From contig JAQBQZ010000014.1 of NCBI GenBank assembly GCA_028286725.1, positions 5,051 to 69,050 of the forward strand: a DNA stretch of 64,000 bases, written 5' to 3'. Under the pieces are notes generated by a model. That model saw only the letters and a program-made list of their open reading frames with translations. It made no database searches and had not been told where the DNA came from. Shown here one piece after another: positions 50,115 through 64,000 of this stretch; within the stretch, counting starts at the first letter, position 1; each line of letters opens with the position of its first letter. The DNA comes from Candidatus Tayloriibacteriota bacterium (GTDB lineage Bacteria; Patescibacteriota; Minisyncoccia; Phycocordibacterales; CAIRYW01). The position numbers were made by a program, and so were the translations under genes.

Positions 50115-50169
50115 CGGCACAAAATACAAAAAACCACACAGAATCTGTGTGGTTTTTTGTATTTTGTGC
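50115..50169. terminator. Perfect 26-bp-arm palindrome directly downstream of tRNA-Phe
   Basis: ggcacaaaatacaaaaaaccacacag-aat-ctgtgtggttttttgtattttgtgcc. The inner ccacacag/ctgtgtgg stem plus tttttt acts as a terminator on either strand. The symmetry extends into the tRNA 3' end (gctctctcggca versus tgccgagagcc). Confidence 0.5.
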
Positions 50170-50239
50170 CGAGAGCCAGATTCGAACTGGCGACCCCTTC
50201 CTCTTCAGGGAAATGCTCTACCAACTGAGCTATCTCGGC
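50167..50239 (-). tRNA. tRNA-Phe (anticodon GAA)
   Basis: Minus-strand cloverleaf GCCGAGATAGCTCAGTTGGTAGAGCATTTCCCTGAAGAGGAAGGGGTCGCCAGTTCGAATCTGGCTCTCGGCA. All four stems pair and the T-loop is TTCGAAT. Confidence 0.85.
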
Positions 50240-56401: not shown

Positions 56402-57574
56402 TTAAAATTTTAGATGTCCCTCAGCTTTAATATTCCTTTGATTTATAATCTTTTTCTTTTTGTACACATTTAGATATCCTGCGATAGCAATCATGATTGC
56501 ATTGTCTGTTGAGAGTGCTTTGTCAGGGATATGAAGATTAATGTTTAGTTCATTCACCATTGCCTGAAGATTGTTTCTTAAATGTTTGTTTGCACTTACA
56601 CCACCCCCAACAATAAGAGTTTTGACTTTGAAATGTTCTATAGCTTTCTTGGTTTTGTGAATGAGCACATCAACAGCTGCATCTTCAAATTCTTTGGCGA
56701 TCTCTGTTTTGATTTGTTCTGTAATTTGAGGAATATCTCGAACCGTATAAAGTACTGCGGTTTTGAGACCGGAGAATGAGAAGTCAAAATCCTTTGTATA
56801 CATCATTGGACGAGGTAGTTTTATATCTGAAGTTTGATTTTCTTTATTTCGAATTGTTTCGGCAAGAGTTGAGATCTGTGGTCCGCCAGGGTACGGGAGT
56901 CCCAATATCCGTGCTGCCTTGTCGAATGCTTCGCCAACCGCATCATCTTTTGTTTGCCCAATGACTTTGTATTTACCCCAGTCTTTGACGAGTACCAATT
57001 CTGTGTGACCTCCGCTTACAAGAAGTGAGAGTGCAGGGAACTGTTTTTTATTGGAAATATTAAATTCCGATTTGGAAATTTGCTTTTTGTTCATGAGTAC
57101 TGAAGCAATGTGTCCCTCCATGTGATTCACACCGATCATTGGAATATCCCAAAGTTCGCTTAAAGCTTTTGCAAAACTTATTCCTACCCATAAAGCAGGT
57201 TCAAGTCCCGGACCTTTTGTAACAGCGATCAGGTCTATTTTTGGAGCTTTAATATTGAGAATATGATTTGTGATATGTTCAAGGAGTTCCGGCTCGCGGA
57301 TAAGAATTGTTTTGAGTTTATTTATTTTTTTATCATCAATTTTTGACTTTAAATATGTGAGATTTTTTGAATCTTTGAGAACTTTAATGAGAAGTGGTAT
57401 TGAATTCTTTTGGTGCTCTCTTCGAGCGAGGTTAGGGAAGACACCTCCATATTGTTCATGTAGTTTTGCTTGTGATGCCAGTGCGTCTCCTAATACTTCT
57501 ATTTTATTTTTTGAAATAGAAAGAAGGGAAATGGCTGTTTCGTCGCAAGAGGTTTCTATAGATAATATCTTCAT
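56402..57574 (-). CDS. tsaD: tRNA N6-adenosine threonylcarbamoyltransferase
   Basis: MKILSIETSCDETAISLL… Kae1/TsaD fold with metal-binding His motifs. 390 aa with insertions. Confidence 0.85.
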   Translation of the reverse strand: MKILSIETSCDETAISLLSISKNKIEVLGDALASQAKLHEQYGGVFPNLARREHQKNSIPLLIKVLKDSKNLTYLKSKIDDKKINKLKTILIREPELLEHITNHILNIKAPKIDLIAVTKGPGLEPALWVGISFAKALSELWDIPMIGVNHMEGHIASVLMNKKQISKSEFNISNKKQFPALSLLVSGGHTELVLVKDWGKYKVIGQTKDDAVGEAFDKAARILGLPYPGGPQISTLAETIRNKENQTSDIKLPRPMMYTKDFDFSFSGLKTAVLYTVRDIPQITEQIKTEIAKEFEDAAVDVLIHKTKKAIEHFKVKTLIVGGGVSANKHLRNNLQAMVNELNINLHIPDKALSTDNAIMIAIAGYLNVYKKKKIINQRNIKAEGHLKF

Positions 57575-57599
57575 ATGATAGGTGAGTTATTAGAAAAGC

Positions 57600-57850
57600 A
57601 AAAGATTGGCACTTCGTGCCCCTGCAGATTTGTACTCAAATGTGCTTTGGGGTCGCACGAAGTTTCGATTGAGAGGATTTTCATATAAAAAGTGATGGTC
57701 TACGTGGAGATTCGAAACTTACAGTTTCAGTATACCTTTTGAGTCTACGGGGAGATTCGGTCACAGATAATTTTCTGGTGAAAATTTCTGCGACCCCGAC
57801 TCCTCCGCCTTCGCGGAGTCCGTCTTTCGACTCATTTTTTAAAGCAATCC
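57600..57850. other. GC-rich non-coding stretch with direct repeats and long-range complementarity (decayed mobile DNA or structured RNA)
   Basis: Two about 20-nt direct repeats gtctacgNggagattcg (about 57698 and 57751). ggggtcgca (about 57649-57657) is complementary to tgcgacccc (about 57790-57798). Small hairpins ggcac-ttc-gtgcc and ctccgc-cttc-gcggag. No ORF above 30 aa. Confidence 0.3.
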
Positions 57851-58048
57851 CATTGCTTTAAAAATTCAAAATATCTTCGATATTTATGAGCCCATTGTAC
57901 CTTGAATGGAACACAGTAGAAAGCACGGTTTTAGAGTGGAAACAGGCTTTTGAACTTATGGGACGACAATGGATCGTTGCCTGATTCCTTTAAAACAAAG
58001 CCATTTTTGCGATATGCCGACTCGGCATCATTACCTCTCTGGGTATAG

Positions 58049-58492
58049 AACTCTATCATTATCAATGTATGTAAGGAAGTAGAGCACGGCATCCGTTTTA
58101 TTTACGCAGACAGCGCCGGAAAGTTTGAAAACATCGCACTGCAGAATGCTCTCAGCTCTGCAAACGATGGCAGAGGCGTTCCTTGCAAAGTGATCGAGGT
58201 AGTTTTCTCAAAAGAGAAAGACGAAATGGTGGGCAATTTGCGAGCTCACTTCGAGCAAGGGAAGATAAAGCTACCAAAGAAATATCGCGATGCCTTCTAC
58301 CAGTTTAAAAACTATCGATACCAAGAGGGCACCGACAAGCCAGTGAAGAAAGACGACCACATCCCCGACTCGACAATGTGCGCACTCCAGCACTTCAAAC
58401 TCGGACAGGTGAAATTAATCAGAACAGTGATTCACTTTCACCATTGGAGTTTTTGTAGCTTTTTATTGATATATTCTTTATTTGCAAGGTAA
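58049..58492 (+). pseudogene. Remnant of a phage terminase large subunit (C-terminal nuclease domain only)
   Basis: Open frame after a stop at 58046-58048 reads …GIRFIYADSAGKFENIALQNA…VIEVVFSKEKDEMVGNLRAHFEQGKIKLPK…KDDHIPDSTMCALQHF. The N-terminal ATPase domain is absent. Visibly GC-richer than its surroundings. Confidence 0.5.
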
Positions 58493-58555: not shown

Positions 58556-59227
58556 TCAAAAACTATCTTGTATGTTGGCGATCGCTGTCCGTCTTACGAT
58601 ATCCCGGAGTTCTTCATAAGTAAGTGAAATATCTAGAGATATCCTTCTTTTCTTACCTTTCTTGCCAAGACTGCTCGATGTGATAAATCCCCAGTCTGTA
58701 TACCCAGCACGTTTAATTTTATCTGCCTCATTAGGCAGGGAAAAACTATAATAATCCTCGCCGTGGACCGCTTGATTTCTTATTTCATAGAGAATCCTTA
58801 AAATAGAGCTAAACCTGAGACTGTGGTGCTTTGGACTTAGCAGGGTTCTTGTAAATCCTAATAAGATTTTTTCTTTATCTTGCTCTGAGGTAAAGGCAAA
58901 GAATCTTTTTATTGCATCAAACGATCCGATCGCATTTCTTCCAGTTTTCATTTTTGTAACTGCTTCAGCCAAAGCAATTAGGAAAATTATTTTAAGTGCA
59001 GGTCTATTTTGTCTTACTAGTTCTTGATCGTCCGCAATATCCAAATACCACTGAGCACGCAAAAGCATACGCCGAGTTTTTAATTTTCTTAAACACTTTT
59101 TTATAAACTTTTTACGCTCCTCCTTATCTGCAAGCAGCGGTGTCAAAAACTGATGGAGCTCAGTGTCTTCAACAAGCGCTTGTCTGGTTGCGTCCTCAAC
59201 AGGTTTCCATATAGATGAAGTTGCCAT
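58556..59227 (-). CDS. HEPN-like (Rx4H) all-alpha protein, Abi_2 / Swt1 / DUF4145-like; candidate effector
   Basis: 223 aa with the motif LYEIRNQAVHGE (R-x4-H, with Asn after Arg) in a predicted helical context. Starts 14 nt downstream of the 697-aa gene on the same strand. Confidence 0.5.
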   Translation of the reverse strand: MATSSIWKPVEDATRQALVEDTELHQFLTPLLADKEERKKFIKKCLRKLKTRRMLLRAQWYLDIADDQELVRQNRPALKIIFLIALAEAVTKMKTGRNAIGSFDAIKRFFAFTSEQDKEKILLGFTRTLLSPKHHSLRFSSILRILYEIRNQAVHGEDYYSFSLPNEADKIKRAGYTDWGFITSSSLGKKGKKRRISLDISLTYEELRDIVRRTAIANIQDSF

Positions 59228-59241
59228 GTGTTTACAATAAA

Positions 59242-61335
59242 TTATTTATTCCAATCTACAGGCTGGATATGAATATTTACACTCCTCATCTCATCATAGA
59301 GTTTTTTTAGTTCTGTTTTGACTCTTTCTTTATCCTCTTCAGGAACCTGAGCGTAGCTTTCAAATATCTTAGGAATGTCCCCGATGTATGTTCCACCCAC
59401 AAGCCATATCTTTTTGAGATTATTTACAAGTTTCAGTAACCTATCAGGTTCATTTGTCAGGAGAGCAACAATTTCCTCTGTTCCATTTACCCACGCTTGG
59501 TGCCTCTCCTCCGGATGATCTTTAAGGCGTATTTTCAGAAGCTCAGCCATTTTCTCAAACAGGTCTTTTGCGTCTTCTGGAGCAATAATCGCTAATTGCT
59601 CAAAAACCAGTCCAAACATCGAGGCGATGTCAGAGTCATAGCCGTTCGCCCAAAACAACAAAACATACTCTCGTATCTGATCGTAGGGCAACATCTTTTC
59701 TTCTAGCATTTTCCAAAAATGCCACGTAAGCGAAGACTTCAGGGCTGGTTTCCCATTAGCTATTTGATCTTTTAATATAGCTTCAAAAACTCTTGGGTTA
59801 AAAGTTCCCATTCGGGGAAAGTCATTCTTTCGAAATAATGCGAAGTATGGAATAAGTGCAGCTAGATCGTGTAAGACATCATCATGCTCGGTAGCAATGC
59901 AGGCATGTAATACCTCTTCCGCTTCTGCTTCTGTTAAATCTCTGAACATAAGAAAAATATTCAACAGCGCTTCTATTACGCGCGGATACTGAGCATTGTC
60001 TCGTAACATTTTTAAAGGCATCTTTCTTACAAGATCACGCTCCTCCTGTTTCCAATCAAAAGGATTTCCGTCTTGATTTTTTATGGCATCTTTTCTTTTC
60101 ACAAGTTCTATAAGGGGGTAGGTTGCTTGAGCACGAATGTAAAGATTATCTTCCAATACATAGCGTTGAATGATCTCAATTATTTCTGTGTAGTATTCTG
60201 GTTTATTCTTGGCAACTATTCGCGACATAAGCCAGCATAGATTTCCGCGCACAGTAGTTATATTCCGCACGTCTTCATTTCTTAAAGCTCGAGCATGATA
60301 ATTGTGTTCTCCCTCAGGATCGTCTGGGTCATTTGCACCAGACGGATTAGGGTTGGGGTCATTTTGAAGCATTCTTACTACCCACATTGCATCATCAATG
60401 CGCTCGTCAGGAAACTCTTGCGCAAAACGGATTAGGTTTTCTTTTGCGCCATTATCAGATAGCCAATCAAGGTTGCCAGAAGCTGTACCTACAGTTTTTA
60501 CAAAGTCGAAAGCGTTTTCGCTTTTATCATCAAGTTGGCTCCTCAGGTATCCCATAAGAAGTTTAAGGGCGTCAGGATTTTCTACATTCGCTCTTGCTTT
60601 TATTGCATCAACAACAGAACGATCAAAGATAAGTGAAAAGTTATTTTGATTTTCCTCAAAATATATCTTGTCTATATTTTCAAACTTTTCAAAATCAAAA
60701 GAAGAGAGTGCTCGAATAGCGGCATGAGTATCAACAAAGAACGCCCAATTTACTACCAATAAAACTCTTTCGTGGTCTTCCACATCAACTTGCTTATTTT
60801 TTGTAGGCAATTTATCAATGAAACTTGTTGTTGCTGCGCCCCTACTATCTACTGATCTGACACCATCACTGTACGACAGAGAAATATTTTCTAAGGATTC
60901 TATTTTATGAAACTTAAATCCCTCATGATCAAACTTTTTCACAGTCGGGTTATCTTTTATTCCTTTTTCTATAACATCTGCCATTATCACAGAATTAGCC
61001 TGCATCTGATTTTTCTTAAAAGAAAATCTGGGAGTATAAACAAGATATCCCTTCAACCCTCTCTTTTTAATTTCTTCTCTGAGTAGTCCTGTAAATTGGT
61101 GCCAAAATTGGCTCCGAGCGAGATCTTCTTCATTTTCAACAAGACGAAAAATCTCTACCGCAACTTTTTCGTTGTTTTCATTTTGAAGTTGATAGTCAAA
61201 GTTTTTTCCTGACTTTACAACAACATCTCTGTTCGTAATACCGTAAGTGAGTTGTCGATTTTGACTCAGATATTCTCTAAATCTTTCTATCGCTTCCTCT
61301 TCCCATTGATCTTTTGCCATTCCTGCATTATGCAA
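59242..61335 (-). CDS. Large uncharacterised protein (697 aa), partner of the HEPN-like gene
   Basis: N-terminal about 330-aa mixed domain, a Pro/Asn/Asp-rich linker (PNPNPSGANDPDDPEGEH), and a C-terminal about 330-aa helical-repeat region. No Walker A or other known catalytic motif. Confidence 0.5.
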   Translation of the reverse strand: MHNAGMAKDQWEEEAIERFREYLSQNRQLTYGITNRDVVVKSGKNFDYQLQNENNEKVAVEIFRLVENEEDLARSQFWHQFTGLLREEIKKRGLKGYLVYTPRFSFKKNQMQANSVIMADVIEKGIKDNPTVKKFDHEGFKFHKIESLENISLSYSDGVRSVDSRGAATTSFIDKLPTKNKQVDVEDHERVLLVVNWAFFVDTHAAIRALSSFDFEKFENIDKIYFEENQNNFSLIFDRSVVDAIKARANVENPDALKLLMGYLRSQLDDKSENAFDFVKTVGTASGNLDWLSDNGAKENLIRFAQEFPDERIDDAMWVVRMLQNDPNPNPSGANDPDDPEGEHNYHARALRNEDVRNITTVRGNLCWLMSRIVAKNKPEYYTEIIEIIQRYVLEDNLYIRAQATYPLIELVKRKDAIKNQDGNPFDWKQEERDLVRKMPLKMLRDNAQYPRVIEALLNIFLMFRDLTEAEAEEVLHACIATEHDDVLHDLAALIPYFALFRKNDFPRMGTFNPRVFEAILKDQIANGKPALKSSLTWHFWKMLEEKMLPYDQIREYVLLFWANGYDSDIASMFGLVFEQLAIIAPEDAKDLFEKMAELLKIRLKDHPEERHQAWVNGTEEIVALLTNEPDRLLKLVNNLKKIWLVGGTYIGDIPKIFESYAQVPEEDKERVKTELKKLYDEMRSVNIHIQPVDWNK

Positions 61336-61428
61336 TAAATATCTTCATATTTCTAGGAGTCATCATAGGTCTCAGTAAATGCTTTGTTTACTTCGTAATT
61401 TTCAGTTAAAAGTGCTAAACTCTTATTT

Positions 61429-63801
61429 ATGAATGAGGCATATTCACGCGTCATTATCGATAAGAAACTCAGAGAAGCTGGGTGGGATATTGAGGATCCT
61501 GCCCAAGTCATTTTTGAAGATCACGGTGATGCAGGACGTGCCGACTATGTGCTCAAGGATTCCTCTGGACATGCTATCGCCCTCATTGAGGCAAAACGCC
61601 CAGACGTAGATCCGTACAGCGCCAAGAAGCAGGCGTTTGATTATATTCAAGCTCAATATCCAAAAGTTCGCTTCATTTATCTTGCTAACGATAAGTTGGT
61701 GTATTTATGGGACCTCGATGGAGGAGGAGATGCGCAGATCGTGCCAGCTTTTTTCTCTCGTGAGGACTTAGTGCGTCGTCAGAGCTCACGAGCAATGAAT
61801 CTTGCAAAGAAGTTTAGCGAGGAGAAAGTCACAGAAGGATATTTCAGCGACGTAGCAGACAATGTCACTCTCCGACCATATCAACTCGCAGCATGGGAAT
61901 CGATAGCCGAAAATTATGATAAAGGTAAGCATGCATTCTTGCTCGAGATGGCAACGGGTACTGGCAAGACGGTTTTAGCTTCACTTATCATCTCGCGTTT
62001 TTTGCGTACCAATAATGCTCAGAATGTTTTATTTTTGGTGGACCGCAAATCTCTCGCAATTCAAACTAAAAATACTTTTGAGAAATTGCTTCGAGGTGTT
62101 TCTGCTGTCGGCACATACTGGGGATCAAACAGAAAAAACCTCACAGGTGCAAATGTTGTTGTCGCTACAATTCAGTCTTTGATGCTCCACGGTACTCGGG
62201 ACTTTTCTCCCGGCTATTTTGATTTGATTATTCACGATGAGGCGCATAGAAGCATTTACTCGCCTGAGGCACGTGCAGCTGTAGATCATTTTGTCGGAGC
62301 TACAAAGATTGGACTTACAGCAACACCTCGAGATTTCTTAAAAAATATTAGCGTAGAGAAACTTTCAGAGAAGGACCCTCGTAAATTGGAGCGCCGTGTG
62401 CAACGAGATACGTATCGATACTTCGGCTGCGATGATGGAGTGGCAACTTACCGATACACAATCCAAGATGGAGTAGCTGAAAAGTTTTTGATCCCACCGA
62501 AGTATCACAAGATGAATACTTCGGTCACTCAGCAGGCACTTTCGGAAGAAGGAATAACTGAGCTGTCGGACGTAGAACTTGAGGAGGGAGAAAGCATCAA
62601 GATCCGTGACCTTGAAAAGAAAGTACACTTTCCAGTTCGCAATCGCCGCATGATGGAGGAGTTTCTTGAGCATGCTCTTCGCACACCCGATGGAGAGATT
62701 GGTAAGACTCTTGTTTTTGCAGTATCACAGGATCATGCGCTGGCACTTGAAAAGATTTTGAATGAACTGAAACCCGAATACGGCGGCAGATTCGCTATGA
62801 CCATTACTTCACGTGTACAAGGAGCACATGACATCGCTAAAGACTTTGCTCGAGACACAAACAAACTTCCACGTATCGGTGTGACAGTAGACATGCTTGC
62901 TACAGGTTTTGATTGTCCTGAGATCTTGAACATCCTCTTTGCTCGCCCTATTTTCGATCCAATCACATATCAGCAGATCAAGGGTCGTGGTACACGGCTT
63001 TGCCCAGCGATCGGCAAGAAAGAGTTTGTTGTTTTCGACTTTTGTGGAGTCGTAGCCTACTTTGACGAAAAGTACGACTGGGAAGCTCCGGCGAGATTGG
63101 CGCGTGAGGGAGGCTTTGCCACGGGGTTGGCTAATGGAGCGATTGAAGGAGGTTCAAGCAACGTGAGCGAAAATGAGGGCATTTCTGAGCCTCGTGTGTC
63201 CCAAACCCCTGACGTAGTTCTCACCCGAGACGTTATGACCCTGCCTGAGGGCGACACTGTCGACCGAAATATGTACCGTGACGAATGGACGAAAGCGGTC
63301 CAGAGCTTCATGAGCAACAAGACCAAAATGGTATCTGGTGCACTCGAAGATCCAGAGAAAGTCGAGGAGCTCATCGAGGAAATCAACACCACCCTCCTAA
63401 ACAAACCTAGACTTTATTTCAATGAAGAAAACTTGCAGGAGTCACATCGCATTGTTGCTGGTATTCGTGAGTTCTTTTTGTCAGCGATCGGTCGGCAGTC
63501 ACTCCCGACTCGTGATGAGCAGCTAGCTTCATTCAAAGAAGCTCTCATAAACAAGTTTGCTAAGACAGACAATCCCGAGAGCTCTTTCAAAAGAGCTGTG
63601 ATGGTGGAGTTTATCGCAGACCAAGCAATTTCAAACGACAAGTTTCGAACTACGGTCCAAGCAAATCCAACTCTCGACTTCCTGCGGTGGGATGAGTTCG
63701 CTCAGGCATACTCCGTTACAGAATGGCTTGACGTATTTTCAAAAGAGGAGCTAACTGAGCTCGTGTCGGATATTTCAAACGCAAAGATTTTGACACTATA
63801 A
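61429..63801 (+). CDS. hsdR: Type I restriction enzyme R subunit-like (HsdR_N nuclease plus DEAH helicase)
   Basis: N-terminus …IIDKKLREAGWDIED…GRADYVLKDSSGHAIALIEAKRP… (HSDR_N PD-(D/E)xK). Helicase motifs MATGTGKT, LFLVDRKSLAIQ, IIHDEAHRS, TATPRD. GC-richer than flanking host genes. Confidence 0.75.
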   Translation: MNEAYSRVIIDKKLREAGWDIEDPAQVIFEDHGDAGRADYVLKDSSGHAIALIEAKRPDVDPYSAKKQAFDYIQAQYPKVRFIYLANDKLVYLWDLDGGGDAQIVPAFFSREDLVRRQSSRAMNLAKKFSEEKVTEGYFSDVADNVTLRPYQLAAWESIAENYDKGKHAFLLEMATGTGKTVLASLIISRFLRTNNAQNVLFLVDRKSLAIQTKNTFEKLLRGVSAVGTYWGSNRKNLTGANVVVATIQSLMLHGTRDFSPGYFDLIIHDEAHRSIYSPEARAAVDHFVGATKIGLTATPRDFLKNISVEKLSEKDPRKLERRVQRDTYRYFGCDDGVATYRYTIQDGVAEKFLIPPKYHKMNTSVTQQALSEEGITELSDVELEEGESIKIRDLEKKVHFPVRNRRMMEEFLEHALRTPDGEIGKTLVFAVSQDHALALEKILNELKPEYGGRFAMTITSRVQGAHDIAKDFARDTNKLPRIGVTVDMLATGFDCPEILNILFARPIFDPITYQQIKGRGTRLCPAIGKKEFVVFDFCGVVAYFDEKYDWEAPARLAREGGFATGLANGAIEGGSSNVSENEGISEPRVSQTPDVVLTRDVMTLPEGDTVDRNMYRDEWTKAVQSFMSNKTKMVSGALEDPEKVEELIEEINTTLLNKPRLYFNEENLQESHRIVAGIREFFLSAIGRQSLPTRDEQLASFKEALINKFAKTDNPESSFKRAVMVEFIADQAISNDKFRTTVQANPTLDFLRWDEFAQAYSVTEWLDVFSKEELTELVSDISNAKILTL

Positions 63802-63804
63802 ATT

Positions 63805-64000
63805 ATGGATACAATTTCACTCTACAAAAGCAGAATCGATGGATTGATGGACATACTCTTCGGAGCAGGAGTATCAAATCCTCAGACAATCATCGAGCAA
63901 CTAAACTATTTACTTTTTTTACGAGCTCTTTCAATCAAAGATGATGAGGCTGAGCTACTTGGAATTACAGATGAATCAGAAAAGATTTTTTCAGGAGAGC
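63805..64000 (+). CDS. hsdM: Type I restriction-modification methyltransferase subunit, N-terminus only (runs off the window)
   Basis: MDTISLYKSRIDGLMDILFGAGVSNPQTIIEQLNYLLFLRALSIKDDEAE resembles the HsdM N-terminal domain. Starts 4 nt after the hsdR stop. Confidence 0.5.
   Translation, partial: MDTISLYKSRIDGLMDILFGAGVSNPQTIIEQLNYLLFLRALSIKDDEAELLGITDESEKIFSGE

Follow-up and report, generated by a model that had tools for sequence, protein, structure and literature searches.

A two-gene module beside a type I restriction-modification locus

The window analysed here is a 64,000-nucleotide (nt) stretch of contig JAQBQZ010000014.1 from a Candidatus Tayloriibacteriota bacterium, a member of the candidate phyla radiation (CPR). 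Towards its end, two minus-strand genes lie beside a type I restriction-modification (R-M) locus. The large gene (59242..61320) encodes a protein of 692 amino acids (aa). The small gene downstream of it (58556..59227; JWP09_947) encodes a 223-aa protein which is presumed to be an effector or toxin and is probably a HEPN RNase of the Abi2/RiboL-PSP-like type. The large gene ends with a TAA stop codon at 59242-59244, followed by an intergenic spacer of 14 nt (59228..59241, minus strand) and the ATG of the small gene at 59227. This short same-strand spacing implies that the two genes are co-transcribed.

An earlier note on this DNA had proposed the pair as a candidate defence system, and both minus-strand open reading frames (ORFs) and the 14-nt gap that it described are present. 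The length of 697 aa that it gave for the large protein is obtained if the TTG at 61335 is used as the start (59242..61335). However, the homologue alignment and the NCBI annotation (JWP09_948, 692 aa, from a Candidatus Taylorbacteria metagenome-assembled genome) favour the ATG at 61320. With this start and the hsdR ATG at 61429, the divergent intergenic region shared with hsdR (61321..61428) measures 108 nt instead of the 93 bp given previously. It contains seven minus-strand promoter-like hexamers where 7.2 are expected by chance, and Rfam, promoter, and terminator scans around the locus returned nothing exceeding chance.

Domain structure of the large protein

Searched alone, the large protein matched nothing in Pfam, NCBIfam, PADLOC v2, PHROGs, or PDB sequences. 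A Pfam scan of 42 aligned homologues identified no consistent family, and PDB sequence and profile searches were empty. An AlphaFold2 model built with the family alignment reached a pLDDT of 90.8. In this model the N-terminal domain (residues 1-245; 60586..61320, minus strand) adopts a PD-(D/E)xK or restriction-endonuclease-like fold with the alpha-beta-beta-beta-alpha-beta core. E7/E8 on helix 1 are conserved in at least 90% of sequences, while D42 on strand 2 and E56 on strand 3 are invariant, both in homologues with a downstream partner gene and in those without one. These positions coincide with the placement of the active site in the restriction-endonuclease fold. However, the motif AVEIFR has Phe58 in place of the canonical Lys, forming ExF rather than ExK. 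K174, N175, and Q177 are also invariant, forming K174-N175-x-Q177 on a later helix, and K174 could substitute for the missing catalytic Lys. The domain may be catalytic or may only bind nucleic acids.

An acidic Pro/Asn/Asp-rich loop (NDPNPNPSGANDPDDPEGEHNYH...ITT; residues ~320-356; 60253..60363, minus strand) runs into a TVRGxLCW motif. Its residues D321, P324, N330, D334, G337, N340, and H342 are conserved and it is modelled confidently, with a block pLDDT of 84-93. This segment had been described as a low-complexity linker but is instead a conserved loop that is not disordered. The loop lies within the C-terminal portion (residues ~246-692; 59245..60585, minus strand), which is predicted to be an all-helical HEAT/ARM-like alpha-solenoid of stacked helical-hairpin repeats, in agreement with the helical-repeat domain suggested previously. 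The 'mixed' N-terminal domain of the earlier note can be specified as a predicted restriction-endonuclease fold with invariant acidic residues. Its view of the protein as a pure sensor or scaffold with no catalytic motif is wrong in part, as the PD-(D/E)xK-type fold retains an invariant D42 and E56.

The small protein and its HEPN motif

The small protein carries the sequence RNQAVH (R150, N151, H155; 58763..58780, minus strand), the Rx4H catalytic motif of HEPN proteins. All 31 members of the 223-aa family share R150, N151, and H155 without exception; nearly all of them are unannotated and many come from Patescibacteria. The protein aligns with Abi_2 (PF07751) at E=0.066, scoring 13.9 bits against a gathering cut-off of 25.6, with only the C-terminal motif region aligned. 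It also matches phrog_2158, an 'abortive infection resistance protein', at E=9.4e-5 over the motif region. Across the family, five of the 31 members match Abi_2 (best 6.5e-4) and eight weakly match HEPN_RiboL-PSP (best 0.011). No match reaching a curated threshold was found for the family in Pfam and the other databases, and no PDB relative of the protein was found by sequence or profile search. The invariant motif, together with weak matches that converge on Abi_2, RiboL-PSP, and phrog_2158, makes it likely that the protein is a HEPN, as had been suggested from the Rx4H motif.

Recurrence of the architecture and exchange of partners

Homologues of the large protein were studied at 79 metagenome loci and on several assembled contigs; loci are referred to here by L numbers. 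The closest homologues, with 49-79% identity, are from CPR bacteria. They belong with the window protein to a monophyletic CPR clade of 16 distinct loci (the window, L001, L002, L009-L011, L013-L020, L023, and L099). A downstream nuclease gene is present in all 15 related loci with enough downstream sequence to judge, beginning between 17 nt of overlap and 9 nt past the large-gene stop; the spacing is 14 nt in the window. The sole exception is L012, in which no same-strand gene follows in the ~600 nt before the contig end.

The downstream partners fall into four families without detectable mutual similarity, and no adaptor segment common to the four was found by blastp or hhalign. A partner of ~360 aa, in which R261, H266, and G267 are conserved in 117-118 of 118 sequences, is found at L001, L010, L011, L013, and L015-L019. 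A partner of ~325 aa with the motif RNQLAH occurs at L014, L020, L023, and L099. L002/L003 and L009 encode a 334-aa partner with an HNH_5 domain (Pfam, E=4e-10), and the window encodes the 223-aa HEPN partner with its RNQAVH motif. In a quick neighbour-joining tree of the large proteins, made without bootstrap, the partnered clade is monophyletic. The window is sister to L001 of the 360-aa family, the HNH_5 loci are sister to L010, also of the 360-aa family, and the loci with the 325-aa family are interspersed among those with the 360-aa partner. These placements imply that the partner was replaced at least three times while the large gene stayed constant. The idea of a constant large protein with a separate effector is strengthened by partner swapping in the relatives. 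The last ~45 residues were considered as a mark of partnered large proteins and rejected, as unpartnered intermediate homologues have these too.

The exact pairing in the window was searched for separately. A hidden Markov model (HMM) of the 223-aa family was run on all ORFs of L001-L087, with L001-L003 and the 79 metagenome loci among them, and three large-protein loci added later were judged from gene tables. No 223-family gene lies beside another large-protein homologue in these sets, and at the three later loci that position is taken by other genes or is empty. Likewise, a large-protein HMM found no homologue at nine distinct other loci of the 223-aa family. For this specific pair, taken literally, it is one of the outcomes that the earlier note had named in advance as refuting its proposal. 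Co-localisation holds for the large protein with some nuclease and fails for these two particular families.

Genomic setting of the partnered clade

In the partnered clade the module directly adjoins R-M genes of at least five unrelated architectures. The neighbour is a type I system in the window and a Dcm methylase with a BsuBI/PstI enzyme at L001, where the latter gene overlaps the large gene. Eco57I-type IIG enzymes are found at L015 and L018, a type III Mod and Res pair at L016, and a type I HsdR with an HsdM/S fusion at L017. L019 contains an N6_N4 methyltransferase with a MutH-like nuclease, and PLD-SNF2 genes with an MmeI-like methyltransferase are found at L002, L009, and L010. The location beside R-M genes, pointed out previously for the window, is therefore part of a recurrent pattern. 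The islands are mobile and usually carry R-M genes, with serine recombinases or integrases within a few kb of the module in seven loci; L099 has recombinases without visible R-M genes. Among 130 neighbours of distant large-protein homologues, no R-M family is found in the 25 most frequent Pfam families.

A side observation concerns L019, where a single gene (L019:4444-5982, minus strand) combines the N6_N4 DNA methyltransferase with a LexA DNA-binding domain and an S24 self-cleaving peptidase, beside the MutH-like nuclease. This fusion suggests that the R-M system is wired to an SOS-type switch.

The large-protein family and its C-terminal module elsewhere

When 1.84 billion representative proteins were searched with the large-protein family profile, 574 clusters at 50% identity matched, 267 of them at E <=1e-30. 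The acidic loop and solenoid occur without further domains in ~430-aa proteins (e.g. P0348). They also form the C-terminus of ~1200-aa proteins (P0343-P0387) with a different N-terminus, which carries a D..ESK motif, read by eye, and has no Pfam match. Other architectures place the loop and solenoid behind LexA_DNA_bind or HTH_31 domains (P0342 and P0300 among them). The occurrence of the solenoid alone or fused to other N-termini suggests that it is a separable regulatory or binding module.

Distant homologues have occasional neighbours such as a PLD nuclease at +27 nt and an S-adenosylmethionine (SAM) methyltransferase at +10 nt. At L095:8001-10752 the homologue, which is 44% identical and belongs to a 5.3-Mb genome, lies in a housekeeping region (carAB, greA). 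The next gene, at +10 nt, encodes a 218-aa SAM-dependent methyltransferase, not a nuclease. Homologues of neither protein of the window were found in IMG/VR or PLSDB, and a phage or plasmid origin of the two was rejected on this basis. BFVD gave no match at E <=1e-3. Full-text literature searches returned no description of the large-protein family or of its pairing with HEPN genes.

The small nuclease families with other neighbours

The 223-aa family is also found in different gene contexts. At L004:2726-11831 a type I operon has the order hsdM, RhuM, DUF4145, hsdS, a 281-aa gene, a 223-family HEPN gene, and hsdR. As DUF4145 is itself a HEPN family, this single hsd operon contains two different HEPN genes. 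At L006:7345-8660 a 223-family gene overlaps the upstream DUF5677 gene (E=1e-28) by 4 nt, making the two a candidate for another two-gene HEPN module; a PLDc_2 gene lies two genes downstream of the 223-family gene. Other members of the 223-aa family follow a type III system or precede an 834-aa protein. The 360-aa family is found elsewhere before a distantly related 830-aa protein, after a pair of 1266-aa and 118-aa proteins, or alone. The 1266-aa neighbour (L097) was considered as a relative of the large protein and proved to be unrelated.

A second type of module, a small HEPN-like gene with a protein of ~830 aa, was observed at L094:7461-10626 and L096:7001-10588. The ~830-aa protein is preceded by a 223-family gene in L094 (4 nt) and by a 360-family gene in L096 (27 nt). 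The two copies align over two segments with 28-31% identity. The L094 copy ends in D..EIKE, which is reminiscent of PD-(D/E)xK. The ~830-aa protein is unrelated to the large protein of the window.

Flanking genes and the island edge in the window

Divergent from the pair is an HsdR-like helicase-nuclease, a type I restriction subunit (61429..63801, plus strand). It matches ResIII (1e-37), HSDR_N, and PADLOC REase_I (2.6e-62), and is EcoAI-like by NF046051 (2.5e-76), although its 258 bits fall under the equivalog cut-off of 550. The frame that follows (63805..64000, plus strand) leaves the window, and its translation (MDTISLYKSRIDGLMDILFGAGV...IIEQLNYLLFLRALS), compared by eye, reads as an HsdM N-terminus by resemblance to others of this kind. 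Of the hsdR-hsdM neighbour claimed previously, hsdR is supported by profile matches, while the hsdM start was assigned by eye. G+C content rises to 0.45-0.48 in hsdR and the hsdM start (61500-64000), from about 0.38-0.41 in the surroundings; across the two-gene module and the greater part of the examined 40-64 kb region it is 0.35-0.41. This contrast suggests that the R-M genes and the two-gene module were acquired separately.

On the other side of the pair, a possible remnant of a terminase large-subunit C-terminus (58190..58492, plus strand) matches Terminase_6C at E=0.008, phrog_5653 (TerL) at 0.012, and phrog_38 at 0.041. The phage terminase remnant of the earlier note is weakly supported by these values and is a possible trace of a mobile element. 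Between this fragment and tsaD (56402-57574, minus strand) are ~600 nt (57575-58190) without a listed ORF of at least 60 aa. They contain the similar short segments ggtctacgtggagattcgaaac and gagtctacggggagattcggtc, have no Rfam match, and may represent the decayed edge of a mobile element. A tRNA-Phe gene (GAA) is located at 50166-50239 on the minus strand, at a distance of ~8 kb from the island. As the housekeeping genes valS and tsaD intervene, the island probably did not integrate there.

Proposed role and alternative explanations

The reading favoured here, with a probability of about one half, is that the pair is a co-transcribed nuclease-effector module in a mobile R-M island, in which the large protein controls the HEPN RNase. 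The 223-aa protein would be the toxic effector. Its constant 692-aa partner would, most likely, bind it and keep the RNase inactive via the HEAT-like solenoid. The restriction-endonuclease-fold domain would either detect infection through a nucleic-acid cue or provide a second nuclease activity. Upon this trigger the RNase would be released or activated and translation shut down, with the outcome that the infection is aborted or that cells losing the island are killed. Abortive infection and island addiction are not mutually exclusive, and the data are consistent with either. The gene pair, the modelled folds of the large protein, the HEPN motif, the recurrence with interchangeable nuclease genes in the CPR clade, and the setting in mobile islands are observed, whereas binding between the two proteins, RNase activity, the trigger, and a defence phenotype are inferred.

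Several observations weigh against this reading. The pairing of exactly these two families is seen in this contig only. Distant homologues of the large protein, from soil bacteria and with ~30-46% identity, have no conserved partner, which indicates that the large protein can function alone. Genes of the 223- and 360-aa families are also found beside very different neighbours, or on their own, and hence do not need this large protein. The HEPN assignment of the 223-, 360-, and 325-aa families is drawn from sequence rather than from structural confirmation. When the 360- and 325-aa families were aligned to the 223-aa family by hhalign, the result was non-significant (P 0.004-0.11) and covered the Rx4H motif only. 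Homology to the 223-aa family was rejected given such local alignments, and it is the motif that suggests a HEPN identity for the two. Catalysis by the N-terminal domain is uncertain because ExF replaces ExK, and adjacency to R-M genes may only be a defence-island effect.

A broader and more tentative version of the favoured reading, which we regard as possible but far from established, treats the large protein as a new family of infection sensors. It would hold interchangeable nucleases (HEPN RNases, HNH) on its solenoid and release them on a nucleic-acid cue, forming a second line in CPR bacteria that is independent of the R-M type. DNA ends made by the neighbouring R-M enzymes, or anti-restriction proteins that mimic DNA, are examples of a possible cue. 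In this version the acidic loop and solenoid would also regulate nucleases fused in cis in the ~1200-aa relatives.

The best-surviving alternative, which deserves serious consideration even though we doubt it, is a toxin-antitoxin (TA) or addiction module. The HEPN protein would be the toxin and the HEAT-solenoid protein its antitoxin or immunity protein, stabilising the mobile R-M island without any sensing of phage. The loci resemble type II TA operons in that the small toxin gene follows the large one after a very short spacer or overlaps it. Mobile islands flanked by recombinases are frequent at these loci, and one locus, L100, sits among TA genes. The HEPN families occur downstream of many different partner genes, as promiscuous toxins do. 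HEAT-type proteins probably serve as immunity proteins in polymorphic toxin systems, and an alpha-solenoid is plausibly adaptable to nucleases of unrelated folds. However, an antitoxin of ~700 aa with a strongly conserved nuclease-fold domain (invariant D42, E56, K174, N175, Q177) far exceeds the needs of neutralisation, and the large protein is partnerless in many bacteria. The window protein also has no DNA-binding autoregulatory domain, although helix-turn-helix or LexA fusions exist in relatives.

The presence of the invariant acidic residues in partnered and solo clades alike, and the common solo occurrence of distant homologues, would also be explained if the large protein were a stand-alone nuclease-based restriction or defence enzyme, similar to Shedu-, Upx-, or type IV-like restriction-endonuclease-fold proteins that carry a regulatory domain, and the downstream gene an independent defence gene. 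The fusion of the C-terminal module to another putative D..ExK N-terminal domain in the ~1200-aa proteins, where the motif was read by eye, fits this explanation, and defence genes do cluster by chance in islands. Such clustering would hardly account for a downstream nuclease gene in all 15 judgeable CPR loci, translationally coupled and swapped in situ. As the canonical ExK lysine is also absent, a stand-alone enzyme is considered unlikely.

It is improbable that the pair is a PrrC-like guard latched to HsdR/HsdM, with an RNase that is set off once the R-M complex has been disabled by an anti-restriction protein of a phage. The divergent adjacency to hsdR-hsdM and the 223-family member found between hsdS and hsdR in a type I operon are in its favour, as are the PrrC/EcoprrI precedent and the proposal of Anantharaman et al. 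(2013; PMC3710099). However, relatives of the module adjoin type I, II, IIG, III, and PLD-SNF2 systems, or none, and this diversity makes a PrrC-style latch unlikely as the conserved mechanism. Neither protein has an ABC-ATPase or PrrC-like domain. Co-mobility in defence islands, or the sensing of a cue common to restriction such as DNA ends, fits better. Chance adjacency of two unrelated orphan genes would explain why these two families were found paired on this contig only, but is very improbable given the 14-nt same-strand spacer and an architecture kept in all 15 judgeable related loci with replacement in place.

Comparison with known systems

Anantharaman et al. (2013, PMC3710099) describe at least 16 HEPN clades with links to R-M systems, among them Abi2/AbiD/AbiF proteins encoded within R-M operons, and propose that such proteins form a second defence line in the manner of PrrC. 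The module in the window shares with Abi2/AbiD/AbiF a small protein with an Rx4H motif, here a probable HEPN with weak profile similarity, in or beside R-M loci and a proposed role as a second-line RNase effector. It differs in that the 223-aa family scores under the Pfam gathering thresholds and in that its partner is a large protein with a predicted restriction-endonuclease fold and HEAT-like solenoid. Like PrrC and RloC, it links a probable HEPN-type RNase to a type I R-M system as a putative backup when restriction fails. However, PrrC and RloC each combine the nuclease in one polypeptide with an N-terminal ABC-ATPase, a domain found in neither protein here by Pfam and NCBIfam searches at E up to 1. 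PrrC is also latched to one type Ic enzyme inside the hsd operon, whereas the pair is divergent from hsdR and its relatives accompany many R-M types. The resemblance to PrrC/RloC drawn in the earlier note is thus an analogy only.

A conserved core with swappable effectors is a feature of several defence systems, such as Lamassu, with LmuB and a variable LmuA, CBASS, Avs, and Thoeris. The module shares with these a constant component, interchangeable nuclease effectors of unrelated folds, and a location in mobile defence islands. In contrast to them it has no SMC, ATPase, cyclase, or STAND domain and no PADLOC match, its constant part being the restriction-endonuclease-fold and HEAT-like protein. 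Nucleases with a restriction-endonuclease fold include the CdiA-CT(1026b) tRNase, XisH, SfsA, NucS, HamA (Hachiman), Shedu SduA, Upx, NucC, and Cap4, none of which has detectable sequence similarity to the large protein. The large protein is distinguished from them by Phe in place of the ExK lysine and by the fusion to a large alpha-solenoid, which is absent there. HEPN-MNT type II TA modules are likewise two-gene operons in which the gene of the neutralising partner, a putative one in the window, precedes that of the HEPN toxin, but the partner here is a ~700-aa protein with a nuclease-fold domain, not a minimal nucleotidyltransferase. PADLOC-DB v2.0.0 (2023) gave no family for either protein at E up to 1. 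The earlier statement that no described defence system has this architecture therefore agrees with the PADLOC v2 models, none of which fits either protein or the pair.

Implications

The new elements are the large family with its restriction-endonuclease-fold and HEAT-like domains, the exchange of partners in place, and an acidic-loop and solenoid module that recurs in other architectures. Because HEPN RNases backing up R-M systems were predicted in 2013, the module would be an extension of that idea and not a new principle. The large protein would define a wholly unannotated protein family of ~570 clusters at 50% identity. The exchange of HEPN and HNH partners in place on one scaffold amounts to a natural experiment on effector recruitment. 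The HEAT-like module, which occurs alone, beside nucleases, or in fusions with them, may be of general use in regulation. CPR bacteria have tiny genomes with few recognised defence systems beyond R-M, and the module, if the favoured reading is true, would extend this repertoire.

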